A stretch of 64,000 bases of DNA. Origin: Candidatus Woesearchaeota archaeon. Lineage in GTDB: Archaea > Nanobdellota > Nanobdellia > Woesearchaeales > ARS49. Positions 3-57,058 of this stretch are shown in pieces (the first letter of the stretch is position 1; every line of letters starts with the position of its first letter). The stretch is taken from the NCBI GenBank assembly GCA_038891615.1, contig JAWADY010000002.1, forward strand, positions 64,994-128,993. The letters run 5' to 3'. The position numbers and the translations under genes were made by a program. The notes beneath the pieces were generated by a model, which ran no database searches, was not told the origin of the DNA, and saw only the letters and a list, made by a program, of their open reading frames with translations.

Positions 3-881
3 ATGTCAAAAAACGTCTTTGCGTTTAAGAAAGCACCGCCAGAATATCCCTACTCCCCATTCCCAAAACCGCCAATATTTCCTTCTGCACCAACATACGG
101 CTATTACGGTGATATAAGTATAGTGACTGAAAAAAGACTTTCTGCGGAGCTGAGCTCATACATAGAATCAAATATCCAAAGCTGCACTGATTGGTCAAGC
201 TTTGCACAGAAAGGGATTGATGTAAAAGTTGGTAAACCATCAGCGGATGTCCTTTTTGGAGACTCTGACACAACAGTCTCGCTTAGGTGGCGAATAGAGG
301 CAAAAAGCGGCCAGGCAGAAGCGGTCATAAACAAATTTGCAGCAAGCATTCCGGTTAGAATGAAGGTTGTACGTAACTATGCTCTCGAGATAGCCTCAAA
401 TGACACCCTTTACTATGACTATGAGCCTAGCAGTGCTCCAGCAGTCCAGGTTTTCAAAAGGGTTGATGGCAAAAGCGACATAATTCAAATCACAGATACG
501 CTTTCAAAAGTTGACACAAAACCGTTTATCTTCAGGTTTGCAAGAAAGAATAGGCCTCCTGTGCTTTTCGATTCTGATATTAAATTGCGATTTAATGAAA
601 TTTTTGCTTGCCCAGGCGATGTTATAAGTTTTGATGGCAAGACATTCAAAATAACTAAACAAAATGGTGACATTCGCTTTTCTTTTGCACCAAATGCAAC
701 AGATTTTGATGAAGATTCTAGTTTATCATTTAATGTTTCTGATAGAGGTGGTGAGCCCTTTCCTTTAAGCACAACTCAGCAAATGGCAAATATTGGTAAA
801 AGAGAACTAAGAATAGAAGTCAGTGATGGTCTTGAAAAAGATTGGTATGATGCAAGCCTGACTTTAAAAACAAAATGTTAA
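3..881 (+). CDS. 5'-truncated secreted/extracellular protein of unknown function; stop overlaps the start of the giant downstream gene (ATGTTAA)
   Basis: Open frame enters from the window edge, 292 aa, no TM in the visible part. The 7-nt overlap with the 875 ATG suggests translational coupling. No recognisable family. Confidence 0.45.
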   Translation: MSKNVFAFKKAPPEYPYSPFPKPPIFPSAPTYGYYGDISIVTEKRLSAELSSYIESNIQSCTDWSSFAQKGIDVKVGKPSADVLFGDSDTTVSLRWRIEAKSGQAEAVINKFAASIPVRMKVVRNYALEIASNDTLYYDYEPSSAPAVQVFKRVDGKSDIIQITDTLSKVDTKPFIFRFARKNRPPVLFDSDIKLRFNEIFACPGDVISFDGKTFKITKQNGDIRFSFAPNATDFDEDSSLSFNVSDRGGEPFPLSTTQQMANIGKRELRIEVSDGLEKDWYDASLTLKTKC

Positions 882-3800
882 GAAAAGAAGTTATTGGAAT
901 CTTTGTAGTGCTGTTCTTCGTAGTAATTGGAATCGCGGTCATTGCACAGGAAGAAAAAACAGGTTGTTGTTGTGATGAAAATGGAACTGCAATGGATTAC
1001 AGTCCTTTCCATACCCAAAATGAGTGCACTGATCCATTCACCATTCTTGTTCCACTTTCTTCAGAAAACATAAGCAAGTATACTCCTGACAACATCTCAA
1101 AAATATGTATAGACGCTTGTGGTGGTGCAGCCCCTAAGCCTTTACCATTGCCACTTGCTCCAAAAATAACTTTTTTTAAAGCAGAACCGTTGATGGGCCA
1201 AAAGAAATTTTTGCTCACCTGGGAGATAAATCAAACACCAAATGTCATCTATATAGACAGGTGCAAAGGAAATGACTGCACTAATTTTGGCAACATTGCA
1301 ACCTTTGCTGGAACCTCAAGGTCTTATGTCGATGATGATGCAAGCCTTGAGTGGCTAACAAATTACACCTACAGGTTGAGGATTGTCAATACAATTACAA
1401 GCCCACCACAAGAATCAAGCATGACAGCATCCTCAAGCCTTGGCGACATTGAGTGCTGGAATCGATTCGACAAAACTCCTTTCTGCATTTCAGAGTACTA
1501 CTATTGGAATGAGCCTATTCAGAGCTATCTCAAGAATTTTGGCTATTTTGGTTTCAGTTTCACTGATAATTTTGCAAGACAGGTGCGGACTGTTTTTGGA
1601 GTAACAAATCTTGACCACATAGGAAAGCTCGACTCAAGATGTCATGTGGTTGGCATAAACAGACTCAGTCAGTCTTCCTCAAGGTGCAAGAGCAACGAGA
1701 CTTGCCTTGTTGTGGATTCAAACACAATCTGCATAACCCCTTCACCTTGCGATACAAGCTTTAATGCAACCTCTGCTTCTTGTGAAAACACCCCTTCAGG
1801 TACTCCAAGCTATTGTTTCTCTGATAAGAGCCAAAGTGTTATTGAGCGCTGCTACAGTTGTGATAAAAGGATGAGCTGCTATGACTATCGTTCAAAAGAG
1901 GCCTGTGAGAGGGATGCATGCGGAATTGGAGATTGTATATGGAAGCCAACTTATGGAGCAATTGGAGTTGGAGTTTGCATCAATCCTTCTCAAAACAACT
2001 GTCTGCTTTGTGACAAGAAAACAGGAGACCTTCTTTCAGGCTTGGATTCAAAAAAATGGCCTAGTCTTTTGGCTTATAATGAGCTTTTTGACGCCTGCTC
2101 ACAGCTAAAGGCAGAAGCTCTTGGCAAATGCCTTGCCGTGACAGACCCTTCAACAGGAAAAACTTCTCCAAAGACTTGCGAACAAGCAACCTGCAGCGAT
2201 TATAAAACTCAGCAAGAATGTAATGCCGACACTTGTGGGTTGGGAATATGCAAATGGTTTGACTCACCCACCTTCCGCGGCTGTGCAAAGGATGCTGACA
2301 CCCCTCCTCAAGCCCCTGCAACAGATAGTGATGGTGATGGTATTCCTGATTGGTGGGAAATCAAGTATGGTTTGAATCCTAACAATCGTGATGATGCTGG
2401 TAGTGATTCTGATGGTGATGGCTTGAGCAATTTGGATGAATGGTTGCGTGGGACCCTTCCAAACAATCCTGATAGTGATGGTGATGGTGTCTCTGATCTT
2501 AATGATAATTGCCCTGGTACTCCTTCAAACACTTTTCAAGTTGATAGCAATGGGTGCCCTCTTCCTGTTAGTGATACCACTGATTCTGATGATGATGGTA
2601 TTCCTGATTGGTGGGAAAGAAAGTATGGTTTGAATCCTAACAATCCTGCTGATGCTGGTAGTGATTCTGATGGTGATGGCTTGAGCAATTTGGATGAATG
2701 GTTGCGTGGGACTCTTCCTAACAATCCTGATAGTGATGGTGATGGTGTTTCTGATCTTAATGATCAACATCCTGGTACTCCTTCAAACACTCAAGTTGAT
2801 AGCAATGGGCGCCCACCTCAAGGCAATGGCAAGCCGGATTGCATTGATCCAAACACAGGTGAAATAGATCCTGCGTGCGAAGCAGACAAGTGGTCACCTG
2901 AAACAGTCATTATCCCTGTGGGTGACAGAGGGGCTGTAAAATACCTATACATACAAATTACTGACCAGTTCAAAAGCACAGGTGAAAAATTAACTATTGC
3001 GCACTCTGGAACTGGAACAAAGGCAGAGTACTTTCCTAAAGGCTACAGCACTTTTCTTTGCGTTGGTAGCCTTTGCTCACCAAATGTTCGTGTGAACGCA
3101 ACTCCCTTGACTGTTGTAAATGGCTTCTTGACAATAAATGGTAAGCCTCTTGGACTGCAGCTTAAGGATGGTTCCAACATCTTAAGATTCTACTCACAAG
3201 ACCCTGCAAATAATAATGAACAAGTTAAGCAGCTAGAGGTGAATGCCTGCACAGGCTGTCAGGGACCTGCTCTCATTACTCCAATTGATATCGAAGGCGC
3301 AAGAATTGTAAATGGTGAGTATTATACAAAGCTAACACAGCCGCAAATAAAGCTATCCTTTGATGCAAAGGCAGAACTTGTTTTAAAGAGGCTTGTTTTT
3401 GGCAATTCTTTTACTGAGCTTAGCTCAAGCCCACAATCCGGCTTCAGCCAAAACTACACATTACTACCTCCTGAGCTAGCAGAAGCAAAGTATGTTCTGC
3501 AAATAAATGCTCGTGGAGAAAATGGAATCTCGAGCTCTAATACGCCTTACAGCTTCAATTTGACGATAGACAAAACCCCGCCACTCCTTTCATTCAATGT
3601 TGAACAAAACAGCATCTTAGAAAACCCAGACCAGTCTTTTGTGCTTAGCTTTAATGAGCCTGTCTTTGTTACTTCCATTTTTTTCGATGAAGAGCATGTT
3701 GCTCAAAATGGTCGCAAGTATGTTTTTACAAGAAATCTAACCTCTGAACTCAAGCAAGTGAATAGCAGCAAATATAACCTAACTGTTAATGGAATTCCTG

Positions 3801-6355
3801 ATGGGCATGTTGCGCTAAGAGTTACAGCAGAGGATTATGCCGGAAATACAATGGCTTCTGTGCTAAACTTTATTATTGACTCAACAGGCCCGGTCATTTC
3901 TCTGGCACAACCACTATTCGGAATTTCTGACAAGACACCATTTGACATTGTCGTTGAAACAGACCAGCCAGCTATCTGCAGATATTCAACAATTCAAAAT
4001 GTTGACACTGCGAGCATAAGCTATGATGCAATGGCAAAGTTCTACATACCTGAAAAACAAACCGCACAGCACATCATACAAGGCTTTGACGAGCTCACAG
4101 GAAAGCCAGAAAACACGCCCTGGAGGTTCTATGTTGTTTGCAAGGATGGCAAGCAACGCCAGTCTAACGAAACCTTCTGGCTGTCCGTTGATTCTGCTCC
4201 TCCAAAAATAACAGCTGCTTATGCAGAACCAAATCCAATCGTTGAGTACACAGACAGTGAGCTGCTAACAACACTGAAAGTCTCAACAGAACGCAGCTCC
4301 TTCTGCAGTTACAGCACAACAACCACGAGCTTTAGCCCTGAAAATGGTTTTGAAGGGACAGGCATAACTCCAAGGCAAGCGCACAATGCTGTGGTTAAAA
4401 TAACCACTTCTCCGACAACTTATAACATCGCTTGCATTTCACCAACCGATTATGGCAAAGCTGCGCCAAGAACAGCAACAGCAACAATAAAAATCACTGT
4501 TGACGTTGCAGCACCACTAACCATTTCCTGCAGCTATTGCCCTTCATTCTGGAATTCTACCACAAAAAACATATACCTGACCACAAACAAGCGCGCGCAA
4601 TGCTTCTGGACACTTGACAAGACAACCACTTCTTTTGGTACAGTTGGATATGAGCACAGCACCACTCTGAAAGTGCCATCTCTTGGCGAGAAAAAAGTGC
4701 TCTTTAGCTGCAATGCAGGCGCCCAAAGTGCAACCCTTGAGTATTCATTTCTTGTAGACAACAGCCCTCCTGTAATGCTCTATGTTAGTGATAACTCAAG
4801 CCTTAAAGAAGATACAGAGCATAGCTATTTCACAGATAGGTTAAGGGCAGCATGGCTCGGGCAGGATAATGAAAGTGGAATAACACGGTATTATTACTCT
4901 TTAATCGAAAAGGCAAACAACGCTGTTGTGATAAATTGTTCACCTGGCTCTCAACAAAACAATTGCCGATTCTCAACAGTACTTGATGGAAATTTCTTTG
5001 ACATTACGCAGGACCATAATGGAAAGTCGCTCAATTTAACAGACGGCTTTAGTTATTTCTTGAAGGTTTGGCCCCTAAATAGGGTTGGTCTTCTTGGAAA
5101 TCCAATGGACTCGGATGGAGTTGTAATAAACAAAAGCAAAAAGCCAGCTCACTGCAGCGATGGAATAACAAATGAAGGCGAATCAGGGCAGGACTGTGGT
5201 GGAGAGTGCGAGCCTTGTCCTGATGGTCAGCCTTGTAGGTCTGATTCGGACTGTCTCTCAAAAACCTGTATAGAAGGTTCGTGCAAGGCTCCGAGCTGTA
5301 CAGATTTAAGAAAGAATGGTAATGAAAGCTCAATCGATTGTGGTGGGAGCTGTCCAACAAAGTGCGAAGCTGGTAAAAGTTGTAACACTGACAGCGATTG
5401 CAAAACAGGACTAAGCTGTATATCTGGTGCATGCGCAGAACCAACAGCTTGCGAGAATGGTATACTTGATGGGCTTGAAACAGACATTGACTGCGGAAGG
5501 GTTTGTCCAACAAAATGCGCAGCTGGAAAGGGCTGTCTTGATAATAAAGATTGCGCTGATGGGCTATATTGTGTTAGTGGTGTTTGTTCTTCAACAACTC
5601 CAACCGCTGATTCTGATGGTGATGGTGTCACTAATGATCTTGACCAGTGCCCAAACACTCCGAAAGGTGAAAAAGTAGATAAAAACGGTTGTTCAGCAAG
5701 CCAGCGTGACACCGATGGAGATGGCATGAATGATGCTTGGGAGATACGCTATGGCTTTGATCCTGAGAATCCTGCTGATGCTTATACAGATGTCGATGCT
5801 GATGGCCTTAGTAATCTTGAGGAATTCAAGTTAGGAACTGATCCAAGAAACCCAGATACTGATGGTGATGGTTGGAGTGATGGGGCTGAGTTCAAGGCAG
5901 GAACAGACCCTCTAGACCCTGCCTCAAAGCCATCCGCCCCTATTGTGAGAGCTTTGCCATGGCTGTTGCTTGTTGCAATCCTTGCCATAGCCGGTTACGC
6001 AGCTTACAAGTACAGGAAGCAAATTGCTGCAATTTTTGTAAGGAAAAAGGTAATTCCTTTGCCAAAGCCGCCTGTGGTGTGGAGACCGCCACCAAGGCCT
6101 GTCCAAAGAGTTGTGCGTGTTCCAACAAGAGCAGAGTTAATCATTGAACAGCTTAGAAAGATTGCCCGAGCTACAAAGGCTGAAGAAGAGGAATACATTC
6201 CTGTAGAAGAGCTTGCCAGAAGGGCAGCTGCGCTAGAGCCAACAGAAGAAGTACTTAAGCATCTAAAGGCAGCAGTAAGAAAAAGCCCTGAGTTTGCAAG
6301 GGCTGCAGCTGCCCAGCCAAAGCTCAGAGCGATGCTCAAGAAAAAATCAAAATGA
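875..6355 (+). CDS. Giant (1826 aa) membrane-anchored surface protein/adhesin with thrombospondin type-3-like Ca-binding repeats (DxDxDG), Cys-rich modules, a C-terminal TM helix and a roughly 130-aa charged cytoplasmic tail
   Basis: N-terminal hydrophobic signal/anchor (IGIFVVLFFVVIGIAVIA). Repeated DSDGDG(I/L/V)xD...WE..YGLNPNN motifs. Four roughly 43-aa 6-Cys modules (CxDGxxNGxExxxDCGGxCxxCxxGxxCxxDxDC...C..GxC). TM ALPWLLLVAILAIAGYAAY near the C-terminus, followed by a Pro-rich then helical K/E-rich tail. Confidence 0.8.
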   Translation: MLRKEVIGIFVVLFFVVIGIAVIAQEEKTGCCCDENGTAMDYSPFHTQNECTDPFTILVPLSSENISKYTPDNISKICIDACGGAAPKPLPLPLAPKITFFKAEPLMGQKKFLLTWEINQTPNVIYIDRCKGNDCTNFGNIATFAGTSRSYVDDDASLEWLTNYTYRLRIVNTITSPPQESSMTASSSLGDIECWNRFDKTPFCISEYYYWNEPIQSYLKNFGYFGFSFTDNFARQVRTVFGVTNLDHIGKLDSRCHVVGINRLSQSSSRCKSNETCLVVDSNTICITPSPCDTSFNATSASCENTPSGTPSYCFSDKSQSVIERCYSCDKRMSCYDYRSKEACERDACGIGDCIWKPTYGAIGVGVCINPSQNNCLLCDKKTGDLLSGLDSKKWPSLLAYNELFDACSQLKAEALGKCLAVTDPSTGKTSPKTCEQATCSDYKTQQECNADTCGLGICKWFDSPTFRGCAKDADTPPQAPATDSDGDGIPDWWEIKYGLNPNNRDDAGSDSDGDGLSNLDEWLRGTLPNNPDSDGDGVSDLNDNCPGTPSNTFQVDSNGCPLPVSDTTDSDDDGIPDWWERKYGLNPNNPADAGSDSDGDGLSNLDEWLRGTLPNNPDSDGDGVSDLNDQHPGTPSNTQVDSNGRPPQGNGKPDCIDPNTGEIDPACEADKWSPETVIIPVGDRGAVKYLYIQITDQFKSTGEKLTIAHSGTGTKAEYFPKGYSTFLCVGSLCSPNVRVNATPLTVVNGFLTINGKPLGLQLKDGSNILRFYSQDPANNNEQVKQLEVNACTGCQGPALITPIDIEGARIVNGEYYTKLTQPQIKLSFDAKAELVLKRLVFGNSFTELSSSPQSGFSQNYTLLPPELAEAKYVLQINARGENGISSSNTPYSFNLTIDKTPPLLSFNVEQNSILENPDQSFVLSFNEPVFVTSIFFDEEHVAQNGRKYVFTRNLTSELKQVNSSKYNLTVNGIPDGHVALRVTAEDYAGNTMASVLNFIIDSTGPVISLAQPLFGISDKTPFDIVVETDQPAICRYSTIQNVDTASISYDAMAKFYIPEKQTAQHIIQGFDELTGKPENTPWRFYVVCKDGKQRQSNETFWLSVDSAPPKITAAYAEPNPIVEYTDSELLTTLKVSTERSSFCSYSTTTTSFSPENGFEGTGITPRQAHNAVVKITTSPTTYNIACISPTDYGKAAPRTATATIKITVDVAAPLTISCSYCPSFWNSTTKNIYLTTNKRAQCFWTLDKTTTSFGTVGYEHSTTLKVPSLGEKKVLFSCNAGAQSATLEYSFLVDNSPPVMLYVSDNSSLKEDTEHSYFTDRLRAAWLGQDNESGITRYYYSLIEKANNAVVINCSPGSQQNNCRFSTVLDGNFFDITQDHNGKSLNLTDGFSYFLKVWPLNRVGLLGNPMDSDGVVINKSKKPAHCSDGITNEGESGQDCGGECEPCPDGQPCRSDSDCLSKTCIEGSCKAPSCTDLRKNGNESSIDCGGSCPTKCEAGKSCNTDSDCKTGLSCISGACAEPTACENGILDGLETDIDCGRVCPTKCAAGKGCLDNKDCADGLYCVSGVCSSTTPTADSDGDGVTNDLDQCPNTPKGEKVDKNGCSASQRDTDGDGMNDAWEIRYGFDPENPADAYTDVDADGLSNLEEFKLGTDPRNPDTDGDGWSDGAEFKAGTDPLDPASKPSAPIVRALPWLLLVAILAIAGYAAYKYRKQIAAIFVRKKVIPLPKPPVVWRPPPRPVQRVVRVPTRAELIIEQLRKIARATKAEEEEYIPVEELARRAAALEPTEEVLKHLKAAVRKSPEFARAAAAQPKLRAMLKKKSK
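2324..2830 (+). repeat. Near-perfect tandem duplication (2 x 258 bp) inside the giant surface-protein gene, encoding two almost identical 86-aa TSP3-like units
   Basis: DNA units starting at about 2324 and about 2582 are nearly identical (gattctgatggtgatggcttgagcaatttggatgaatggttgcgtggga... in both). The protein units differ at only a few residues. Confidence 0.85.
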
Positions 6356-6852
6356 GACTTGGCCAAATAGTTGGGCAAATATTTCTTTTCTTGTTGGCAA
6401 CAATTGTTTTTGTTTTTATAGTTGTTTATGGCTATCGCGCAATAGGCAACCTTGTTGCAAAAGGTGAGCAAGCAGACCTAGTGCGATTCAACAGCGAGCT
6501 CAGTTCCGCAGTTAGTGCTATATCCCTTGACTATGGCAGCGTGCGTTGCCTAGAGCTCAGCCTTCCAAAAAGATATAGAACCTTTTGTTTTGTCGGGCAG
6601 GAGCCTGACATAGGCGCACTTTCCTTGGTCAGCCCATTAATTGCAAGTGCTGTCCAGTCAGGGATTAAGCAAAATGTTTTTTTAATCCCCCCTTCACCGC
6701 TTCAACTATATCTAGAAAAGGCAACGACAAAAGCAGAGGGAGGATTTTTTTGCATAAATACAAGCGGACCAACAAATCGCTTGCTACTCAGGCTTGAAGG
6801 TGGCGCAGGAGGAATTGCAGAGCTACAAAAATGGCAAGGAGCAAGCTGTTAA
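6352..6852 (+). CDS. Pilin-like protein with class III (type IV pilin-type) signal peptide
   Basis: N-terminus MRLG|QIVGQIFLFLLATIVFVFIVVYG: short basic segment, G at -1, Q at +1, then a roughly 20-aa hydrophobic helix. Lies directly downstream of the giant gene. Confidence 0.55.
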   Translation: MRLGQIVGQIFLFLLATIVFVFIVVYGYRAIGNLVAKGEQADLVRFNSELSSAVSAISLDYGSVRCLELSLPKRYRTFCFVGQEPDIGALSLVSPLIASAVQSGIKQNVFLIPPSPLQLYLEKATTKAEGGFFCINTSGPTNRLLLRLEGGAGGIAELQKWQGASC

Positions 6853-7820
6853 TTCCAAAGCACAGAAAAGGCCAGATAGAAGCGCCAGTAAGTTGGATAT
6901 TCATACTTATTGCAGGAGCTGTAATCCTTCTTTTTTTCTTTTCAACAACCATTAAGTTGCGTGACATTGCAAAACAAAAGCTTTCAATAACCCTTTTGTC
7001 AAACTTAGATGCACTCATCTCTAGCTCATCCGTTGCAAAAGGTACAAGCCAGCTGCTGCCGATTTATGACCAGCAACTTGTTTTTGAATGTACACAGGCT
7101 TGTCTTTGCGAGCTTTCAGTCCTTGGCGCAAAAAAGCCATTTAAAGACAGGCTGATTTTTGCTCAGCAAAAGGTTTTTGGAAGAAATGCGCTATTTTGGG
7201 CTCTTGACTGGAAGGAGCCATTCAGGATTGCTAATTTTCTTTACATAACAGACAGCTCAAGCAAATATTGGTTGGTTGGGGATTCGAGCAGCGAACCACT
7301 TAAGACAATAAAGTTCCTCCTTCCTAAGAATCTTAGTGCGGAGTTCGTAGACTCCACCCAAAACATCAAGCCAGGAAATTTCAAGAAAAGCAGGATTGTT
7401 CTTTTTGACAAAGCACTGGATGAAAGCCTTGCAGATAGTTTTCCCAAAGCATCTGAGCTAACATTACTTGTTGTCAACACCCAGAACAAAGAGCTTAAGT
7501 GGTACAAGAGAAAAGGTAGCAAGCTGGAAGTGCTGTCAAATGAAGGGGCGGATAACTACAAAAGCATTCCCCATCTTTTGGGAGCAATTTTTAGTGACGA
7601 GCCGCAGCTTTACGCCTGCCAACAAGCAGCTTCTGAGGACAGGAAAGCGGCCATAAAAGAAATCTATGTTGCACGTGTGCAAAAATTGATGCAAATTGTG
7701 CCAGAAGAACGTGGTTGCAGCGCGCTTTACGAAGAGACGTTCAAAAACATTAACGCTCCTGAGGCGCTTGAGGAGATTAATGAGGAATTGCTAAAAAAGA
7801 GTTGTCCAACAATATACTAA
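6831..7820 (+). CDS. Pilin-like protein with class III signal peptide (329 aa)
   Basis: N-terminus ...KHRKG|QIEAPVSWIFILIAGAVILLFFF. Overlaps the upstream gene by 22 nt. Confidence 0.55.
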   Translation: MARSKLLIPKHRKGQIEAPVSWIFILIAGAVILLFFFSTTIKLRDIAKQKLSITLLSNLDALISSSSVAKGTSQLLPIYDQQLVFECTQACLCELSVLGAKKPFKDRLIFAQQKVFGRNALFWALDWKEPFRIANFLYITDSSSKYWLVGDSSSEPLKTIKFLLPKNLSAEFVDSTQNIKPGNFKKSRIVLFDKALDESLADSFPKASELTLLVVNTQNKELKWYKRKGSKLEVLSNEGADNYKSIPHLLGAIFSDEPQLYACQQAASEDRKAAIKEIYVARVQKLMQIVPEERGCSALYEETFKNINAPEALEEINEELLKKSCPTIY

Positions 7821-7821
7821 A

Positions 7822-8352
7822 ATGGCAAACAATGCATCTCCAAGCAAAAAGGCTCAGATAAAGATGTTTGAGAATATCGCTGTCCTCGTGATATTCTTTT
7901 TTCTTCTGGCTTTTGGTACAAGCTTTTACTTTACACTTCAAAAAAGTTCCCTTCAGCGTGAAATGGAACGCATTGCGCAGCTTGGAAACATTCAGCAGGC
8001 GCTTAGGCTTACATTCTTACCAGAGCTTGACTGCTCATTTGCTGCTGTACAAACTGAAAATTGTTTTGACAGGCTTAAGTTTGATGCTCTTGCAGATCAG
8101 CTTAAACCAGGTAGCCAGCGATGGCTTGAGTACTCTGCAATCCTTGGTTTTACTAGTATAAAACTAAAGACTGTTTATTCCAGCCTCTCTCCCCCGCCTG
8201 AAGAGAAACTTCTGTACGAAAGAAAGCTGAACGCAACTGCAATTCGCACAGAGATTCCTGTCTTGATTTGTGAAAACGGTTGCGACCCGCTAAATCAAAG
8301 CTATTCCTTCGGCATCCTTGAGGTGACAAGCTATGTTAGAAGGGCAACCTGA
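7822..8352 (+). CDS. Pilin-like protein with class III signal peptide (176 aa)
   Basis: N-terminus ...SKKA|QIKMFENIAVLVIFFFLLAFG. Start lies 2 nt after the upstream stop. Confidence 0.55.
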   Translation: MANNASPSKKAQIKMFENIAVLVIFFFLLAFGTSFYFTLQKSSLQREMERIAQLGNIQQALRLTFLPELDCSFAAVQTENCFDRLKFDALADQLKPGSQRWLEYSAILGFTSIKLKTVYSSLSPPPEEKLLYERKLNATAIRTEIPVLICENGCDPLNQSYSFGILEVTSYVRRAT

Positions 8353-8854
8353 TGGCATTGCTGTGTTGAAGGGATTAAAGAGAGCAAAAGGCGGGCAAAT
8401 GGAAATAATTGGTCTAACAATCATCATTCTTCTTGTTATAATTGGGGTGCTTTTTGGAATACAGTTTGTGCTCAAGGCAAAGCCGCCCACAATTGGACGA
8501 GAGTTTAGGGAATCGCAGTACGCAGCCAACTTCCTAAGCACTCTTACAGGTACAACAAGCGCATGTAATGGTTTGAGCATCACACAACTTTTACAGAACT
8601 GCGTGACAAGGACAGGGATTGACTGTCCATCAGGAAAGGGTGCTTGTGAGGAGGTTGAGGCTCTTATAGAAACAATCCTTGATAAAACAATTGGCAAGTC
8701 GGGACAAAACAGAGCATACCAACTTATGGTAAAAGGCAGCAACATTGACATTACTAAGTCTAATCGGGGAGGATGTCCGGGCGAAAAAGAGGTTGCAGAA
8801 CACACACTTCCAACAAGAGCTGGAGTAGTTTCTATACGCCTCGAGTTGTGCTAA
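8333..8854 (+). CDS. Pilin-like protein with class III signal peptide (173 aa)
   Basis: GAGGTGA Shine-Dalgarno 8 nt upstream of the ATG. N-terminus ...KRAKGG|QMEIIGLTIIILLVIIGVLFG. C-terminal part has 4 Cys. Confidence 0.5.
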   Translation: MLEGQPDGIAVLKGLKRAKGGQMEIIGLTIIILLVIIGVLFGIQFVLKAKPPTIGREFRESQYAANFLSTLTGTTSACNGLSITQLLQNCVTRTGIDCPSGKGACEEVEALIETILDKTIGKSGQNRAYQLMVKGSNIDITKSNRGGCPGEKEVAEHTLPTRAGVVSIRLELC

Positions 8855-13508: not shown

Positions 13509-14225
13509 ATGAGCCTGCTCATTGTCAGAAGGAAGGGAATAACAGAAACAGGATTAGTGGCAATAATCCTTGTCCTTGCCTCTGGCATTGTTCTTGGAGC
13601 TCTTGTCTATCAGTTTACTGTTAAGGGGAAGCAGGTTGGCTCTATCGAGCTTTGCAGACAGAATGTGCTAACTGCTAGCAAAGTTGTAGCGCTTGGCAAA
13701 GCAGATATTTGGCCAATCACCAACTGCTTTACAGAAGACCTTGGCAAACTTCCAGAAAAAGAAGAAGAAGCCATTACTCTGATTGCCGAGGGTATTAGGA
13801 AGTGCTGGTACATGTGGGGCGAAGGAAAGCTAACTCCATGGAGCTCTACATGGCTATCAAGAAACATCATGTGTCATGTTTGTACGATGTTTGAGCCAAG
13901 CGCAGAAGTGAGTATTGAAAAGCTTCATGGTTGGATGAGGACTCACAACATTCCTGGCAAAGAATTAACCTACTATGACTTTTTGAAAGAAGGCTACATC
14001 CCTTTCATCTATCCAGCACTTGAAGAAGAAGCCAAAGCCAAAAAAGTTGACCTCACAAAAGGAATGAAATGGGCTGTCTTTTATGCCTATGGAACGCGCG
14101 CGGATTGGCTAAGATTTCCCCTCATTGGTGGACTTGTGCTTGAAGAACCAAAACAAGGCGTTGCCTTCCTGCCGACAAATGAACTCGGAGGCATATGTAC
14201 ATATACTACGATAAAACTCAAATGA
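13509..14225 (+). CDS. Pilin-like protein (238 aa) with class III signal peptide and a Cys-containing globular domain
   Basis: MSLLIVRRKG|ITETGLVAIILVLASGIVLGALVY. Shares CW..WGEGKL...CHVC motifs with the next gene, so the two are paralogs. Confidence 0.6.
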   Translation: MSLLIVRRKGITETGLVAIILVLASGIVLGALVYQFTVKGKQVGSIELCRQNVLTASKVVALGKADIWPITNCFTEDLGKLPEKEEEAITLIAEGIRKCWYMWGEGKLTPWSSTWLSRNIMCHVCTMFEPSAEVSIEKLHGWMRTHNIPGKELTYYDFLKEGYIPFIYPALEEEAKAKKVDLTKGMKWAVFYAYGTRADWLRFPLIGGLVLEEPKQGVAFLPTNELGGICTYTTIKLK

Positions 14226-15145
14226 AAAGGGCGCAAGTAACAACACAGACACTCTTGGTAGTGCTCGTGCTTTTACTCGTAGCAGCTGTCATCTTTATTT
14301 CTTTTCAGACAAGACTCTTTGGCTTAGCAGAAGCCAAAAGTGCAAAGGATGTTTGCAAAACTTCTGTCTATGCCAATGCGCTGCTTGGAAGAAGTGTTGG
14401 AATCTTTTCTTCGGATATAAAATGTCCAACTCAGTATCTTCAGATAGACAATAGTGATGTTGCACATGCAAAGTTTGAGATTGCAAAAGCTCTGTCAGAT
14501 TGTTGGGAACAATTTGGAGAAGGCAGGCTTGAGCTTTTTTCTGGAGAAGGTGTTTTTTGTTCCGTATGTCATTTGATAACTTTTAAGCACAAAGAAAAAG
14601 CAATAAGCGGGCTTTTAGACTATCTTGCAACTAACAAAAAACCCCTTACTGACAAAAGCTATCTTGATTATCTAACAAGCTATCACACTTCAGGAAGCGA
14701 GGTTCTTAAGGCATATGCAGCTGAAAAGCTCCCGCCTGACATTCTTGACCCATCGCGAGGCAACACCTATGCAACAATCTTCTACTATGTCAAGGGTAAA
14801 GACCATGTGAAGGATGTTATTGAAAGAGCCCAAGCAGCAGCACCTGGCATTGGGCTTGAAGCACTTGGTATCGGATTGATAAAGGCAGGCAGTGCAACAG
14901 CTGGCTTGATTTCAGCAACCGGCATTGGTGCGCCTCTAGGTGTAGTTGTTGCAAAGGTCTCAACAATTGTCGGCGGAGTTTTGATTGTTGGCGGAGCAGG
15001 CTATGCCCTCCTCGCTGGTTGGTTCGGCGGAGTCCCTGTAGAATTCCTCTCACAAGTACGCCTCGAGCCTTACAACGAGCAAACGCTTAAAAACCTCGGA
15101 TGCCAAATCCTGCCTGCAGCTGAAAAAGCAGAGGTTGGAAGGTGA
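14222..15145 (+). CDS. Pilin-like protein (about 307 aa), paralog of 13509, with a C-terminal Gly/Ala-rich hydrophobic segment
   Basis: Start ATG overlaps the upstream stop (aATGA). MKRA|QVTTQTLLVVLVLLLVAAVIFISF. Motifs CWEQFGEGRL / CSVCHL match the upstream paralog. Confidence 0.6.
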   Translation: MKRAQVTTQTLLVVLVLLLVAAVIFISFQTRLFGLAEAKSAKDVCKTSVYANALLGRSVGIFSSDIKCPTQYLQIDNSDVAHAKFEIAKALSDCWEQFGEGRLELFSGEGVFCSVCHLITFKHKEKAISGLLDYLATNKKPLTDKSYLDYLTSYHTSGSEVLKAYAAEKLPPDILDPSRGNTYATIFYYVKGKDHVKDVIERAQAAAPGIGLEALGIGLIKAGSATAGLISATGIGAPLGVVVAKVSTIVGGVLIVGGAGYALLAGWFGGVPVEFLSQVRLEPYNEQTLKNLGCQILPAAEKAEVGR

Positions 15146-15279
15146 TGAAAAAAGGCATATCCCGCGAGGCATTTGTTTACATACTCTTGGCACTTATTGC
15201 AATCCTCATTGGAGTAATCTTGATAATTTTTTGGGGAGGCGGGGCAGAAAAGGTCCTTAAGTCTCTTGGTTTGGGATAG
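15145..15279 (+). CDS. Mini pilin-like protein (44 aa), essentially only a class III signal peptide plus TM helix
   Basis: Absent from the ORF track (<60 aa). TGATG overlap with the upstream stop. MKKG|ISREAFVYILLALIAILIGVILIIFWGGG. Confidence 0.4.
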   Translation: MKKGISREAFVYILLALIAILIGVILIIFWGGGAEKVLKSLGLG

Positions 15280-15284
15280 CTCAA

Positions 15285-15641
15285 ATGGACAAAAAAGCTG
15301 TTGCAATAGAAACAATAGTCATCCTTCTCCTTGCACTTGTTGCTCTCCTTTTCTTTACAGTCCTTGGAGGAAAGCAGCTTCAATTGGGCAAGAAAATAAG
15401 CTTTTTCATGCCGGGCTGCCCAAAGGGTGTTTTAATAACCACAGAATGTCCATGTGATGGCCAAAAGATAAGTTCAGGTTATTGCTGTGATTTTGGACCA
15501 AGCCAAAAGCCTTGCTTTTGCGTAGAGCGAAATGTTAATAAGTGCGAGGATTACAAAAAGCAAGAGGATTGTGTAAGCAATCCTTGCCAAGTTCAAACTG
15601 CTTGCACCTTTGAACAAGGTGTTTGCAAAAGGGCTGGTTAA
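15285..15641 (+). CDS. Pilin-like protein (118 aa) with an extremely Cys-rich C-terminal domain
   Basis: MDKKA|VAIETIVILLLALVALLFFTVLGG. 16 Cys in the last 80 aa (CPKG...CPCDG...YCCDFG...CFCVERN...). Confidence 0.6.
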   Translation: MDKKAVAIETIVILLLALVALLFFTVLGGKQLQLGKKISFFMPGCPKGVLITTECPCDGQKISSGYCCDFGPSQKPCFCVERNVNKCEDYKKQEDCVSNPCQVQTACTFEQGVCKRAG

Positions 15642-15645
15642 ATAA

Positions 15646-16071
15646 ATGGCAAAAAAAGGGGTAAGTGGAATACAGGTCGTCATAGCACTTTTGATTGGCA
15701 TCATAGTGCTCTATGTTGTTGTGGCTTTTATGCAAGCACAGTTCAAGAAGGCTGGAAAGAGTATCGAGGAAATAACTCCTTCCACAATCAGCTTTGCGCT
15801 GCAAGGCTGCAGGCTCCAAGCCGCACGAGGTTTTTCTGATGCAGATAAGGATGGATATCCCGACTTTTGTGATGTCTGCGAAGGCGGTGATGACGGAAAG
15901 CACAGCGATGCTGACTGGGTTCCAGATGATTGTGATGCGCATGAAAAAACAAAAGGGCTTCCTGCAAAGGAATGTGGTTGTGAAAAGCCAGAAATGGATT
16001 CTGAAGGCAGGCTGATAAAGAGCTGTGGGAGGCTTCTTTCAATCGAGCCATTTAAGTGCGCGAAAAAATGA
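15646..16071 (+). CDS. Pilin-like protein (141 aa) with Asp/Cys-rich (Ca-binding-like) C-terminal domain
   Basis: MAKKG|VSGIQVVIALLIGIIVLYVVVAF. C-terminus: DADKDGYPDFCDVCEGGDDGKHSDADWVPDDCD. Confidence 0.6.
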   Translation: MAKKGVSGIQVVIALLIGIIVLYVVVAFMQAQFKKAGKSIEEITPSTISFALQGCRLQAARGFSDADKDGYPDFCDVCEGGDDGKHSDADWVPDDCDAHEKTKGLPAKECGCEKPEMDSEGRLIKSCGRLLSIEPFKCAKK

Positions 16072-16088
16072 ATTTGGTAAAATGAAAA

Positions 16089-16949
16089 ATGAGCAAAAGG
16101 AAAGGCCAGGAAGAAGTTGGAAGGATGCTTTGGGAACTTGTTGCGCTGATACTGGCAGTAACTGTTATCATTGGAGGGATATTGTTTTTTGGAAGGGCAT
16201 TTGGATTTATTGGTGAGAGCAAAGAGGAACAGGACACAATCTCAAGCTTTTACAGCCTTGCAACAAAACTAAACGAACTGGCGCTGCTTTCAGAGTCATT
16301 CGTTCATGACAGGCTACCACTTTTTATTGGGGAAGGATTTGTAATTGTTGGCTTTGACAAAGCTGGAGATATTTCTGTCAATGGTTGCAGCGATGAAACA
16401 CATCTTGGAGTTCCAGCTACTGACCTCATCCCAAAGCCAGAGTTCTGTGGCGAGTTTGCTTGCATATGCCTCTATTCTGGCATTAGCGAAGAAGTCGGCG
16501 AGAAGCAGCCAATTTCTTGTGCCAAAATTTTCGCTGACAGATTGATTGGCTTGAGTAGTGCGTATCTTGAAAAAAACTATCCCTCTTTTGAGTCTTTTTG
16601 GAAAAACGCAATGGGCTCTCGTAGGGATAAGCCAGAACTACAAAGGTTCATGGTAACAGGGACAGAGCCTTTTAGCACTCTTCTCGAAAAAGACTATCCT
16701 CTTTTCCCAAGCTTTGAAAGCTACCCCTATACCTATTTTGTTCTTCATGGTGAGTGTGAAAACTGGTGGTTTGATGCCAACTTTGGCACACAAAGCCTCT
16801 ATCTTGAAAAAGTGAGGATAAAAGACAGGAACTATTTATTTATCACCGCAGACATCGAGGACTTTGTAAACAAAAGGGTTGCTGCAATAAAGGATTGGCT
16901 AGAGAAGCAAAAGAGTCAAGAGAAAGCCGAGGGAGGGCTGGTTGGTTGA
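16089..16949 (+). CDS. Pilin-like protein (286 aa)
   Basis: MSKRKG|QEEVGRMLWELVALILAVTVIIGGILFFG. Basic N-terminus, Q at +1, a single N-terminal hydrophobic helix. Confidence 0.55.
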   Translation: MSKRKGQEEVGRMLWELVALILAVTVIIGGILFFGRAFGFIGESKEEQDTISSFYSLATKLNELALLSESFVHDRLPLFIGEGFVIVGFDKAGDISVNGCSDETHLGVPATDLIPKPEFCGEFACICLYSGISEEVGEKQPISCAKIFADRLIGLSSAYLEKNYPSFESFWKNAMGSRRDKPELQRFMVTGTEPFSTLLEKDYPLFPSFESYPYTYFVLHGECENWWFDANFGTQSLYLEKVRIKDRNYLFITADIEDFVNKRVAAIKDWLEKQKSQEKAEGGLVG

Positions 16950-17784
16950 AATGGTTGTGATTGGCAAGCGAGCCGTTGTTCATCCAGTTGCTCTGACAAT
17001 TGCAGAGCTTATTTTAGCCGCAATTATTGTCCTTGCAATGTACAATTTTGCCTCAAGGGCAAGAGAGCCTGGAAGGCTTGAAAAAGAGTTTGTTGCAAAA
17101 GACCTTGGCTTGCTGCTTGACGCCGTTTCCGTTGGCCAAGGGAGTTACTATTTGGTTTACACATCACCAGCCCTTCATCAAGATTTCAAGATTTCTGCAG
17201 GCGCCCACGAGGTTGTTGTTGATGGCTCAAGGCAGCCCTACGCATCTGGGCGTATAGAAATAAAAGGAGATTCCTTTGGAACAGATAAACTTGTGATCTG
17301 GTCTGAAACTGGAATTCTTGGCACGCCTTCAGCAGTCAAAGGTCACCTGCTACAGCTTCCTTGCGAAAGCCCACTGTCTTTTTCAACTGATAGGCAGCTT
17401 GCGGTAGCTGCTGATGATGGTGCCAAACAACTTGTTGAAAGACTTTTTGTCAAGGACTTAGGGAAAAGGCTGTTGTCAAATGATGAGAAAGGCGCAAGTG
17501 CGCTATTAAAAATTTTCACAGGAACAAAAAATGGGACAGCGAAGGCATATTTTTGGAAGGATGATAAGTCAGCAAGGTCGCTTGCATGCGCCCTTTTGAA
17601 CAGCATTGTCGCTTTTGAAGGAACCAATTCAGCCCTTCTTCTTCCGCTTAATCCTGAGCTTGCACCAAAGCGTTTTGCAGAGCTTGAGAAACAAAAGCCA
17701 GCTGTCTTCCTCGAGCTAGGCCCAGACCTTATTTCAAGCCCTGAACTTGCTCAGGCACTTTATGGTGGTGTTCGAAGTGGCTGA
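16942..17784 (+). CDS. Pilin-like protein (280 aa)
   Basis: ...VIGKRA|VVHPVALTIAELILAAIIVLAMYNF. Overlaps the upstream gene by 8 nt. Confidence 0.5.
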   Translation: MVEMVVIGKRAVVHPVALTIAELILAAIIVLAMYNFASRAREPGRLEKEFVAKDLGLLLDAVSVGQGSYYLVYTSPALHQDFKISAGAHEVVVDGSRQPYASGRIEIKGDSFGTDKLVIWSETGILGTPSAVKGHLLQLPCESPLSFSTDRQLAVAADDGAKQLVERLFVKDLGKRLLSNDEKGASALLKIFTGTKNGTAKAYFWKDDKSARSLACALLNSIVAFEGTNSALLLPLNPELAPKRFAELEKQKPAVFLELGPDLISSPELAQALYGGVRSG

Positions 17785-18325
17785 AAGGCAACAAGCAAAC
17801 ATTTTTAGCAAAAAGGCTCAACTCCTTAGCCATCACACAAAATTTCTTTTCATAAGCCTTCCATTTGTTATTATCTCCGCTCTTGCGTTGTTTCTTCTCG
17901 CAAACAGGTTTCTTGAAATAAGAGTAAATACCTTTCCCCTCGAGGCAAACGCATTTGTTGAAAGCATACTCTACTCATCTGCTGGGCTGGCTTATGTTGA
18001 CAATGTAACCGGGATTACCTATTCTGGAATCATAGACATCACAAAACTTGAAGAAAAGGACATTGGAAAAAGGTTGTCTAAGGCTTTTAACTATGGTGAA
18101 GGGCAAAGTTACCTTGCAGCAAAGCTTCTGATTGGTGATAGGACAATTTTCTATAACAACGAACCAGAAGCACCTTGGTATGACCGCTGGAAACCAAAGG
18201 TTGGGCTCAAGGGTGCTGGCGGAGTGCAATCGGTTACTTTTGTTAAATATGTGCTCATCAAAAATGGAAGTATGTTAGAACCTGCAACCGTTTACATAGA
18301 GTTGCTCAAGCCTGGTGAGGGCTAA
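17747..18325 (+). CDS. Pilin-like protein (about 180-190 aa); start codon uncertain, possibly an internal GTG
   Basis: ...FSKKA|QLLSHHTKFLFISLPFVIISALALFLLAN. The single N-terminal hydrophobic helix follows a KKA|Q motif. No in-frame ATG after the upstream stop, so a non-ATG start is likely. Confidence 0.45.
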   Translation: MLRHFMVVFEVAERQQANIFSKKAQLLSHHTKFLFISLPFVIISALALFLLANRFLEIRVNTFPLEANAFVESILYSSAGLAYVDNVTGITYSGIIDITKLEEKDIGKRLSKAFNYGEGQSYLAAKLLIGDRTIFYNNEPEAPWYDRWKPKVGLKGAGGVQSVTFVKYVLIKNGSMLEPATVYIELLKPGEG

Positions 18326-18900
18326 TGGTAATAAATGGAAGAAAAGGCGTTGTTGGGGAGCTATTAGTTGCATTTCTCTCTTTTGCAGGCCTTGCTCTTA
18401 CAATCCTACTCTTCACTTTCATATTCTCTCCAGCAGACTTTCCTGGTCCTCAAACTTTGACCGTGCTTAATGAAGGAGAAACAGATGGCAAACTTAGACT
18501 GCTGACCATTCTTCGCTCACCAGTTGTTTTTGATGGGGAGAAAATAGATTTTGCAGACATGATTGCACTTTGGCAAGGAAAGCAAGAGCCGCTCGAAAGC
18601 ATTCTTCACTCAGAGCTTGAAAAGCTGCTTAATAACAAGCTAAGTTATGAGTTCGAGCATGCTGGTGTCAAATTTGTGCGCACTTATGCTTTTGCCATTT
18701 ATAGCATAAAAGACGATTTAAGTCGTGGCAAAGAACTAATGAAAGTAGAGGCAAGCGGCTATTCAGGAGGTAAAGAAATAGCCTCAACTCATGTTGCATT
18801 AAAGGATGGCAATGTGCTTGAGGTTGTGCTATTTTCAAGCGCGCAAAAAAAGCCATCCAAAACTCCTGTTTCGAGCGCTTCATCCATACCTATAAAATAA
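18325..18900 (+). CDS. Pilin-like protein (191 aa)
   Basis: MVINGRKG|VVGELLVAFLSFAGLALTILLFTFIF. Start overlaps the upstream stop. Confidence 0.5.
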   Translation: MVINGRKGVVGELLVAFLSFAGLALTILLFTFIFSPADFPGPQTLTVLNEGETDGKLRLLTILRSPVVFDGEKIDFADMIALWQGKQEPLESILHSELEKLLNNKLSYEFEHAGVKFVRTYAFAIYSIKDDLSRGKELMKVEASGYSGGKEIASTHVALKDGNVLEVVLFSSAQKKPSKTPVSSASSIPIK

Positions 18901-18901
18901 A

Positions 18902-19870
18902 ATGGTCAAATCAAACAAACGCGCAACAATCTTTTTTGAACCACTAATACTTTTGGGGTTAATCGTTGCTCTTAGCATCGCAGCTATTTCTGTTAGCCAA
19001 AAAAGGTCCTCTTTTGGAACAATTGGCAGACCAGCTGCTGACCTTCTTAATTACAATGACTTTGGTGAAGAACTTCTTTTTAAGGTTGAACAAGCAGCGA
19101 GGTTTGCAGTTCGCGATGCGCTTTATGAGTTGGGTGCAAATGGTTGGAGTGCTGAAGGTCCAAACTTAGGTTGTGATAGCCAGCCAATTGGCAAGCCTTT
19201 GCTTATCGAGAGCTTTCCTACACCACAGGAGATTGTTGAAGAACTAACAAAAATTTCTGATAGGAAGCTTAGGGCTTATTCGCTCAGGGCTTCGCAGCTC
19301 CTTGGTCTTGGGAGGTTGGGCTTCCACTTGCCAACAGGTATTGAATATGAGTGGTTTGTTGAGCACTCTGGTGGGCTGTTGAGAGTGAGTGGCATTGCTG
19401 ACAAGCCAGTTACCTTCTCATTTAGCTCATACGAGGTAGGTAAACCAACACTCTACGGCCAGCCGCTGCCACTGCCAACTGCTTCAGTTGTTTTTATTCC
19501 TCTTGAACGTCCAAAACAGCCAGAAGCCCTGCTCTTGCTTTATGGCAATTATTCGATAAGGCCGTCCTTCACAGTCTGGATAGATTACGACCTTTTCGGC
19601 GTCTATGAAAGAATAAAAGAAGGCGTTGAGCAACTCAAAACAATCATTCAGGAAAACAGGGCTCTTGGTTTTGAGGTGACAGACCTGGCGCTCAAAAACA
19701 AAGTCAAGGAGCTGAATTCTGCGCAGGGAGAGCTTGTTTGGCAAGTCCCTAAGAGGACAAGTGAAGATCCGGCTATCTACTCTTTTGTTATTTCTCATAA
19801 GAAGCAGCTTTTAGGATGCAGTCAGCCTATTCAAATAAGGTTTGCGATGAGAATTCCATTAGCTGCTTGA
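18902..19870 (+). CDS. Pilin-like protein (322 aa)
   Basis: MVKSNKRA|TIFFEPLILLGLIVALSIAAISV. Lies 1 nt after the upstream stop. Confidence 0.5.
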   Translation: MVKSNKRATIFFEPLILLGLIVALSIAAISVSQKRSSFGTIGRPAADLLNYNDFGEELLFKVEQAARFAVRDALYELGANGWSAEGPNLGCDSQPIGKPLLIESFPTPQEIVEELTKISDRKLRAYSLRASQLLGLGRLGFHLPTGIEYEWFVEHSGGLLRVSGIADKPVTFSFSSYEVGKPTLYGQPLPLPTASVVFIPLERPKQPEALLLLYGNYSIRPSFTVWIDYDLFGVYERIKEGVEQLKTIIQENRALGFEVTDLALKNKVKELNSAQGELVWQVPKRTSEDPAIYSFVISHKKQLLGCSQPIQIRFAMRIPLAA

Positions 19871-40454: not shown

Positions 40455-40482
40455 TAGTCCACCTCTTTTTGCAATTTAGCCC

Positions 40483-50074: not shown

Positions 50075-51385
50075 CTATGGGCTTTTTCTAAGCATTGTTC
50101 GTGGAAAGGGTATTGCATCTTTTATGTTGTCAAGTCCACAAATCCACGATATGACGCGCTCGATGCCCATCCCAAATCCAGAATGTGGAACAGAGCCATA
50201 GCGTCTTGTGTCAAAATACCATTCGTAATGTTCTGGATGTTCGCCGCTCTTTTTTAGCGCTTCTTTCATTGCATTGATGTCAAGGTCTCGTTGCGAGCCT
50301 CCAATTATCTCGCCGTACCCTTCAGGCGCGAGCATGTCAAAACAGAGTGCCGTCTTAGGATCTCTTGGGTCTGCTGGCTTATAAAATGCCATTATCTCCT
50401 TTGGATAGTTCGTTACGATGAGAGGCCTGTCAAAATGCTTCATTATTTTGTTCTCTTCAATTGTCCTCAAGTCCTTGCCCCACTGCACTACCAATCCTTC
50501 TTTTTTCTTCAAAAGCTCAAGGACTTGTGTATATGTAAGCCTAGGAAAAGGTGTTTTTACCTTTTTGAGCTTCGACAGTTCTTGCCCAAGCTGTGTTAGT
50601 TCTGAGCTGTTTTCCTTTAACACAGCCTTTACAACGTGCTCAACGAGCTCTTCGGCTTGTTTAATAGCTCCGTCCAAGTCCTGCCACGCTGTTTCGACCT
50701 CTGCCATCCAGAACTCTGCAAGGTGTCTCGAGGTTTTGCTCCGTTCTGCTCTAAAGCATGGACTAATTGTGAATATCTTTTCAAGTCCAAAAATTCCTGC
50801 CTCTGCATAAAGCTGCCAACTTTGAGTAAGGTATGCAATGTCGTCAAAGTATTTTAGCTGGAAAAGGGTTGCTCCCCCTTCGCAAGCAACTGGGGTTATT
50901 ATAGGTGGAGACCATTCGTAGTAGCCTCGCTCATAGAAATAATCTCGTACCGCCTTGAGGATGGTTGAGCGAATCTTAAGGATGTTTGTTAGCTTTCTAC
51001 TTCTTAACCAAAGATGCCTCACATCGAGGAGAAACTCCTGACTAAGATCCTTTGCTATTGGGAATCTCTCTGCAATATGAACAATTTTCAGGTCTGAAAC
51101 TTTTAGCTCGTATCCTGTTGGAGCCCTTTCATCTTTTACAAGCTCGCCCTCAACAATAAGCGAGCTTTCCATTGTTACCTTTTCCGCATTACTGAATAAC
51201 TCCTTTGGCACATTTTCTTTCTTGACAACACATTGTATGATGTTGGAGCTATCTCTTAAAACAATAAACACTTTGTCCGCAAACTTCCTTTCGCGATAGC
51301 ACCAGCCTCTAAGCCTAACCTTTCCTTTACCTTTTTCAAGTGCTTCTTGTATCGAAATAATGCCGTCTTTTTCAGCTACTGCCAT
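50075..51385 (-). CDS. asnS: Asparaginyl-tRNA synthetase (class IIb)
   Basis: Motif 2 FRAERSKTSRHLAEFWMAEVE (the EFWM form is typical of AsnRS). Motif 3 GFGMGIERVI. 436 aa. Confidence 0.75.
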   Translation of the reverse strand: MAVAEKDGIISIQEALEKGKGKVRLRGWCYRERKFADKVFIVLRDSSNIIQCVVKKENVPKELFSNAEKVTMESSLIVEGELVKDERAPTGYELKVSDLKIVHIAERFPIAKDLSQEFLLDVRHLWLRSRKLTNILKIRSTILKAVRDYFYERGYYEWSPPIITPVACEGGATLFQLKYFDDIAYLTQSWQLYAEAGIFGLEKIFTISPCFRAERSKTSRHLAEFWMAEVETAWQDLDGAIKQAEELVEHVVKAVLKENSSELTQLGQELSKLKKVKTPFPRLTYTQVLELLKKKEGLVVQWGKDLRTIEENKIMKHFDRPLIVTNYPKEIMAFYKPADPRDPKTALCFDMLAPEGYGEIIGGSQRDLDINAMKEALKKSGEHPEHYEWYFDTRRYGSVPHSGFGMGIERVISWICGLDNIKDAIPFPRTMLRKSP

Positions 51386-56959: not shown

Positions 56960-57058
56960 TCATTCTTATTTAACCAGCCGCAGGAAAACTTCATATTCTC
57001 TTTAAGCTTTGCTAAGCTTTCAAAATGTTTATATAACAAAAGAGGTGCTCAATATTTT

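Follow-up and report, generated by a model that had tools for sequence, protein, structure and literature searches.

A stretch of 64,000 nucleotides from a Woesearchaeota genome, referred to below as the window, carries two long head-to-tail repeats inside the gene for a giant surface protein. The question raised by this locus is whether the repeats are the product of a very recent event in an array that is still changing or an older and settled feature of the protein. Our analysis suggests that a module of 86 codons, containing three TSP3-type calcium-binding repeats, was probably duplicated in tandem and in frame, and that the duplication is moderately old and fixed. It is ordinary repeat evolution within a surface protein, and the repeat belongs to a known type.

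The host gene (875-6355; like all the features located below, on the plus strand unless stated otherwise) encodes a protein of 1826 aa which, on the basis of the list of open reading frames, the translation, Pfam matches and homologues, is a giant surface protein with a type-I membrane anchor. An N-terminal signal or hydrophobic segment (890-946) is followed by a GCCC motif, a Cys-rich head and an array of Ig-like domains. Further along the protein are present three Cys-rich DxDCGG repeats (about 5177-5590), a C-terminal TSP3 stalk (5609-5932) and, directly after the stalk, the transmembrane anchor (5951-6007) with a charged cytoplasmic tail behind it. The stalk consists of four repeats, namely c3 (which has a Cys pair), c1, c2 and c4. 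Pfam matches in the protein are to TSP3_bac, Big_13 and TSP_3, and the TSP3_bac score for the whole protein is 74 bits. The exact protein is also present in assembly GCA_038896715.1 (contig JAWACO010000001.1) and is labelled by NCBI as a hypothetical protein of Candidatus Woesearchaeota archaeon. Surface architecture together with the pilin-like operon makes it plausible that this protein acts as an adhesin.

The protein is a member of a family of giant Woesearchaeota surface proteins (P0001-P0011 and about 60 further representatives), with which it shares both architecture and operon. Full-length homologues retrieved by the whole-protein search are about 30% identical to it, those which are named being Woesearchaeota. 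No relative above 33% identity was found in this search, in which an unrelated peptide of 57 aa stands for the 90% cluster of the query itself and so conceals it. When the 380-aa N-terminal region was searched exhaustively with HMMER, 518 proteins were obtained at E <= 0.001, and dozens of these matches are collinear, running in a single stretch over query residues ~1-355; scanning of genome contigs and metagenome contigs with this region gave no relatives. N-terminal features present family-wide are the signal peptide, the GCCC motif, the Cys-rich head and a junction of the form CxKNADG..DC..CExDyFPP, and those of the C-terminal part are the Ig-like array, three DxDCGG repeats, the TSP3 stalk, the transmembrane anchor and the charged tail. 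The C-terminal TSP3 stalk is common to most family members and is, in the host protein, ancestral. The number of TSP3 motifs in this stalk is usually 2-4 and reaches 10-11 in P0004 and P0243; the arrays within the family's C-terminal stalk are, to judge from such comparisons, evolutionarily labile.

The P0008 (L003) and P0009 (L004) loci have the same gene order as the one here, with two or three genes upstream of the giant gene and four small ones after it, and this conserved order identifies the comparators as true orthologues. Each of the four small genes encodes a product whose N-terminus combines a short run of basic residues, K-[GA]-Q and a hydrophobic helix, by eye a class III pilin-like signal peptide. 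Pkinase and PhoU/MazE genes located downstream on the opposite strand are also present in the P0008 locus. A literature search for TSP3 repeats in DPANN archaea, and likewise for the MAG accession, returned nothing.

The repeat search detected a direct repeat of two copies, 2321-2533 and 2579-2791, at a spacing of 258 nt and with 92% ungapped identity; mean column identity is 93% for the wider repeat region (MAFFT). When the repeat is divided in frame, unit A (2321-2578) is 258 nt or 86 codons in length and contains three TSP3-type repeats followed by the linker PLPVSDTT. Unit B (2579-2833) is 255 nt or 85 codons in length, also in frame, and contains the same three repeats with a TTT codon deleted in the third (a3). 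The preliminary description, made from the letters of the window alone, had reported a tandem duplication of 2 x 258 bp within the gene. Two head-to-tail copies are indeed present, with coordinates that agree to within 3 nt, but their sizes are 258 and 255 nt. The same description regarded the units as almost identical, which they are not: codon alignment gives 28 substitutions in 255 aligned nt and one codon deletion, that is 89% identity, and 72 of 85 residues (85%) are identical between the two units in protein, with 13 amino-acid substitutions and one deletion, at a dS of 0.12-0.21. A core of 171 nt (2333-2503 of unit A) is 95% identical to unit B. The longest exact run common to the two units is 63 nt, and further runs of 29, 26, 25 and 21 nt are present. 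Random in-frame pairs of 255 nt drawn from the host gene have a mean identity of 26.4% (SD 3.0, maximum 38.8%, n=13,931), and since the identity of units A and B lies far above these values, the repeat is real and beyond chance. The contrast drawn earlier with the other TSP3 units of the gene is confirmed by our comparison, those at 5609-5932 being 60-73% identical in DNA and 50% in protein. The in-frame A/B duplication in this large surface-exposed protein is indeed younger than the remaining TSP3 repeats of the gene.

Three DxDxDGxxDxxE motifs are present in each unit, and all six are intact across units A and B. In unit A, repeat a1 occupies 2324-2404 (DSDGDGIPDWWEIKYG.., with the motif stretch DSDGDGIPDWWEIKYGLNPNN..), repeat a2 occupies 2405-2470 (DSDGDGLSNLDEWLRG.., with the motif stretch DSDGDGLSNLDEWLRGTLPNNP) and repeat a3, which carries the Cys pair, occupies 2471-2557 (DSDGDGVSDLNDNCPGTPSNTFQVDSNGC). 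Bacterial TSP3 repeats bind Ca2+ and serve as extracellular spacers. Scored separately with the TSP3_bac profile (PF18884), units A and B reach 40.0 and 33.7 bits, respectively, at a Pfam cut-off of 25. With the eukaryotic TSP_3 profile (PF02412) unit A reaches 24.2 bits against a cut-off of 25, by way of its Cys-containing a3, and unit B has no match to this profile because both of its cysteines are gone; the C-terminal block scores 28.7 bits with it, which is above the cut-off of 25. A PDB sequence search found no relative, and the AF2 single-sequence model of residues 465-673 has a pLDDT of 47 and is uninformative. ORFs antisense to the repeat (2525-2770, minus strand, 81 aa) are taken as by-products of the GAT-rich coding strand.

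The closest known likeness of the units is to the bacterial TSP3 repeat (PF18884) of proteins such as Myxococcus CglD, MtsD and TraB and of the Amuc_1099 type, with which they share the 22-residue DxDxDGxxDxxE motif at scores above the cut-off for both units. However, the host here is an archaeal type-I membrane protein whose domain set is otherwise unrelated to these bacterial proteins. NCBIfam matches to MtsD, Amuc_1099, PA1041, CglD and TraB are confined to the TSP3 repeats, and none of the equivalog models of bacterial TSP3 proteins reaches its cut-off as a match to the whole protein. The Amuc_1099 score of 59.6 against a threshold of 50 is a sum of four short repeat matches, the best of which spans 106-152 of the 321 profile positions. 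Type 3 repeats of eukaryotic thrombospondin and COMP (PF02412) resemble a3 of unit A and c3 of the stalk in having DxDxDGxxDxxDxCP...C with the Cys pair, but unit A falls just below the cut-off and in unit B both cysteines have been replaced.

What distinguishes the protein from the rest of its family is the presence of a TSP3 block at the junction of head and stalk, which occurs here alone among the members sampled. The left half of an ancestral loop (CAKDAD, 2282-2299) can be recognized on the N-terminal side from the family alignment and a survey of 63 representatives taken from the HMMER search, the family reading being C-x-K-[ND]-A-D-G-[ND]-..-D-C. It is followed by a Pro-rich lead-in, TPPQAPAT (2300-2323), which is part of the insertion. 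The right half of the loop, together with the conserved motif GNGKPDC...CEADKWSP (2822-2899), aligns with ..DC....CE.D.F.P of all homologues. The stretch in between, about 174 aa from TPPQAPAT to ..NGRPPQ, has no counterpart in the alignment of 11 homologues, where KNADGx joins xxDC directly. The distance from C.K[ND]AD to CE.D.F.P is 11-32 aa in the 63 family representatives as against 192 aa with six motifs here, and the motif survey found no inserted TSP3 array at this loop in any of the 63, same-operon orthologues included. A strict TSP3 motif is present inside the ancestral loop in five family members (e.g. KDADDDGIPDC), so that the insertion site is an ancestral single calcium-loop-like element. 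On these comparisons, the TSP3 block is evidently a lineage-specific insertion in a single DxDxDG-like loop, at the boundary between the Cys-rich head and the Ig-like array.

The junctions of the block provide a possible hint as to how it was doubled. The tail of unit B, RPPQ-GNGKPDC, is continuous with the right-hand part of the ancestral loop, and in a three-way junction alignment the lead-in of unit A, DAD-TPPQ, which starts ACC CCT CCT CAA G, resembles the end of unit B (CGC CCA CCT CAA G). In this phase the array has the form r-X-r-X'-r, where r is a short Pro-codon repeat. Such an arrangement is classically left behind when short direct repeats give rise to a duplication through slippage or unequal recombination. 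The bracketing is suggestive of a trace of the duplication mechanism, and the 10-nt repeat could also have arisen by chance in Pro-rich codons.

Taken as a series of events, a single TSP3 module would first have arrived at the ancestral loop, possibly through ectopic recombination between the GAT-rich TSP3-coding motif of the loop and a TSP3 block elsewhere, for example the protein's own C-terminal stalk. A single duplication of the module would then have followed, in which the Pro-codon repeats CC[T/A]CCTCAAG that now bracket the array served as the sites of unequal recombination or of replication slippage. The copies have since diverged, apparently mostly under purifying selection on the calcium-binding repeats, with change concentrated in the linker and the two cysteines. 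The search for a donor with unit A gave only short generic TSP3 fragments, with <=73% identity over part of the unit. The protein's own C-terminal block is 50% identical to the internal block at the amino-acid level, and TSP3 blocks of unrelated proteins are 51-57% identical to it (BLAST against retrieved proteins); the C-terminal block is no closer than these foreign blocks, and no donor of the module was found. No sister species with a single-copy module was found by the searches with the whole protein, unit A and the N-terminal region, so that the order of insertion before duplication is one that we infer and do not observe.

Comparison of the two units codon by codon reveals where they have diverged. 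Between codons 0-61, 11 nt differ, affecting five synonymous and four non-synonymous codons. In codons 62-63, 5 of the 6 nt are changed (AAT TGC -> CAA CAT), converting Asn-Cys into Gln-His. Codons 64-77 have zero differences apart from the deleted codon, and in codons 78-85 another 12 nt are changed, the first of these being in the second Cys (TGC -> CGC) and the rest in the linker. Over the last eight codons, which mark the junction, identity between the units is only about 50%. In repeat a2, by contrast, the two proteins agree at every residue (100%). Both cysteines of a3 are lost from unit B, by TGC->CAT at 2768-2770 and TGC->CGC at 2810-2812, so that the C-x15-C pair is gone as a whole, as would be expected from an abandoned disulfide. 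The dS between the units (Nei-Gojobori and LWL85) is 0.12-0.13 over codons 0-61 and reaches 0.20-0.21 when the whole unit is taken, and dN/dS is 0.34-0.49.

One reading of this pattern is that the duplication is much older than its dS, intragenic gene conversion having homogenised the first three quarters of the units while their ends escaped. The uneven spread of the differences, with 17 of them in codons 62-63 and 78-85 taken together, and the perfect conservation of a2 in protein would be in keeping with such a history. However, nearly all changes in the divergent patches are non-synonymous, and these patches fall on the linker or junction and on the Cys codons, as would suit a local relaxation or selection and not a difference in age. 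The sites are too few to reveal conversion tracts, and no outgroup with the module was found. We therefore regard gene conversion as an unlikely explanation in comparison with a single duplication followed by ordinary divergence of the copies.

Sampling of related genomes places the duplication well before the present population. The exact 1826-aa protein is encoded on 5 contigs of NCBI MAGs, under at least 4 NCBI protein accessions, and a sixth MAG encodes a variant of the same length (1826 aa); two units are present in all six full-length copies. A partial third protein variant has its differences outside the repeat. Alignment of MAG GCA_038890175.1 with the window gives 1 difference in 9355 nt, a T>G change at 2612 which replaces Trp by Gly inside unit B. 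The dS of 0.12-0.21 between units A and B exceeds this divergence of 1 change in 9355 nt between sampled genomes by a factor of about 1000, which makes the duplication older than the diversity sampled by some three orders of magnitude.

These results bear on the view, put forward in the preliminary description, that the duplication is very recent and the array still expanding or contracting, so that an adhesin exposed to diversifying selection would vary in size or phase. Several observations could be cited in its favour. The shared exact runs of 63 nt and less suffice in principle for homologous recombination, TSP3 counts differ among family members, and the sole SNP between the two MAGs over 9.4 kb falls in unit B. 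Against it stand the 28 substitutions and the indel, with a dS that speaks against a very recent origin, and the six assemblies, in all of which the unit is present twice and the protein is of equal length. The comparison with related MAGs that had been proposed thus reveals no difference in copy number among these assemblies, nor any expansion or contraction. Because the six MAGs appear to represent one near-clonal population, the lack of copy-number variants is in itself weak evidence, and rare alleles with another number of units may exist. Diversifying selection finds no support in the dN/dS of below 0.5. Phase variation in the sense of on/off switching also fails, since the units of 258 and 255 nt are multiples of 3 and no simple-sequence tract is present; the periodicities that TRF detects are trivial ones of 6-12 nt, rich in GAT and confined to the TSP3 motifs. 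If a unit of such length were gained or lost, the protein would be resized and not switched on or off. On balance, ongoing variation of this kind is improbable; the TSP3 block does not act as a switch, and in the population sampled it shows no current variation.

Comparison with known size-variable surface proteins, such as streptococcal alpha C/Rib, staphylococcal SasG/Aap and Candida Als, leads to the same assessment. The likeness consists in in-frame, head-to-tail repeats, where recombination between units would alter the length without breaking the frame. In these proteins the array is made up of numerous copies with nearly 100% identity, and its copy number varies between strains. In contrast, two copies of 89% identity are present here, constant across six assemblies. 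Identity between units of >95-100%, which is characteristic of copy-number-variable adhesins, is not reached by the units as a whole, and 95% is found only in the 171-nt core.

A more elaborate scenario would have the module of the protein's own C-terminal stalk move ectopically into the single Ca2+ loop and create there a new calcium-dependent hinge between head and stalk, in an attachment protein of a pilus operon in what is probably an episymbiotic archaeon; the array would tune the reach of the head to host cells, and natural populations would continue to contain rare alleles that differ in copy number. We consider this scenario as a whole very doubtful.

An artefact of assembly, in which one unit was falsely doubled by the assembler, had also been raised as a concern, and repeats of such length are of a kind that can mislead short-read assemblers. 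However, a false copy would be identical, and here 28 sites and one codon distinguish the two units, which remain in frame, show coherent changes at the protein level and have no exact run longer than 63 nt in common. The same structure is moreover found on 5 contigs and in one further MAG, and given this divergence of the copies and the agreement of independent assemblies, we reject an artefact as highly improbable. Diversity-generating retroelements are common in DPANN archaea, and two similar repeats of ~250 nt in a surface-protein gene of a DPANN-type archaeon bear a superficial resemblance to the template/variable pair of such an element, but this candidate has a negligible chance of being correct and is ruled out by a mismatch spectrum that is not adenine-specific (A at 6/28 mismatches in unit A and 9/28 in unit B, all substitution types being present), both copies being direct tandem in-frame coding sequence and no reverse transcriptase being found among the subset of window ORFs scanned.

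From what is known of the repeat family, the block of ~170 residues with six predicted Ca2+ sites could form a calcium-stiffened spacer or hinge, and this would lengthen the reach of the N-terminal head. The import of the finding beyond annotation is small: a calcium-binding spacer module was gained, and apparently then doubled, in one lineage of a widely conserved but uncharacterised Woesearchaeota surface protein, and the impression of a hypervariable locus is corrected. A more promising lead is the family of giant proteins itself, encoded in a conserved operon with type-IV-pilin-like genes, which makes a sensible candidate for a role in cell-cell attachment of DPANN archaea. Elsewhere in the window, 60113-61969 encodes a GatE-type protein (GatB_N with a GAD domain inside); GatE is archaeal, and this product fits an archaeal host.

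The two tandem TSP3 modules inserted in the giant surface-protein gene, unit A (2321-2578) and unit B (2579-2833), differ at two adjacent codons, AATTGC at positions 2507-2512 and CAACAT at positions 2765-2770, where 5 of 6 nucleotides are changed; the 14 codons located 3' of this difference are identical between the units. This multi-nucleotide change abolishes the first Cys of the C-x15-C pair in unit B. The sole nucleotide difference between the two MAGs (the genome of the window and GCA_038890175.1) over 9355 aligned nt is also located within unit B, at position 2612, where T>G replaces Trp by Gly and yields six consecutive G. This difference may reflect either genuine variation or an error of the consensus sequence in the repeat. 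Analysis of the whole inserted block also reveals a short direct repeat at both of its ends (ACC CCT CCT CAA at 2300-2311 and CGC CCA CCT CAA at 2810-2821), which may be an incomplete third unit, the footprint of microhomology or a chance match.

Towards the C-terminal, the giant protein carries three consecutive Cys-rich repeats of ~43 aa each (~5177-5590, + strand), recognized by translation and family comparison, with the pattern x-DCGG-x-C-..-C-x-DSDC-..-C. They are situated N-terminal to the C-terminal TSP3 stalk and are conserved in nearly all members of the family; a Pfam scan of the protein returned no match over them. In 90%-identity clustering of the protein database, the 1826-aa protein (875-6352 of the window) is placed in a cluster of 22 members, the representative of which is an unrelated 57-aa peptide (MVKRGSITVFLALTL...). 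Because of this representative, the protein and its near-identical relatives were missed by the homologue search on the clustered database.

The giant gene is part of an operon of tightly packed, overlapping genes (3-8854, + strand), the layout of which is kept in distant Woesearchaeota; the comparison covered the loci L001 (1-10980), L003 (993-12645) and L004 (1954-14465). Two or three genes precede the giant gene and four small genes follow it, encoding in the window products of 166, 329, 176 and 173 aa. Pfam and NCBIfam scans of these four products gave no matches. Their N-termini, in which a basic stretch and K-[GA]-Q are followed by a hydrophobic helix of ~20 aa, resemble archaeal type-IV-pilin-like (class III) signal peptides.

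Similar N-termini, with motifs including RRKG, KRAQ, KKGV and RKGQ, are present in a second run of ~9 small ORFs (13509-19870, + strand). On the opposite strand (38265-42780), a T2SSE-family ATPase of 765 aa (40483-42780) adjoins a 729-aa protein without a match in the Pfam scan. Judged from sequence, the second run, the ATPase and the 729-aa protein together suggest a type-IV-pilus-like apparatus. One pilin-like ORF of the run (15646-16071, + strand) contains a single TSP3-like motif, DADKDGYPDFCD (15838-15873), the only one that the motif search found outside the giant gene in the window.

Among the translation-related genes, a tRNA of 84 nt (56876-56959, + strand) is found by Rfam (57.7 bits) but is absent from the ARAGORN output; possibly, this is an archaeal tRNA with an intron. 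The GTG start listed for the ORF at 56915-57712 overlaps with it. Two adjacent paralogous genes on the minus strand encode class II aminoacyl-tRNA synthetases of the Asp/Asn/Lys type (50075-51385, 436 aa; 51432-52739, 435 aa), and the same genome has a gene for a GatE-like protein (60113-61969).
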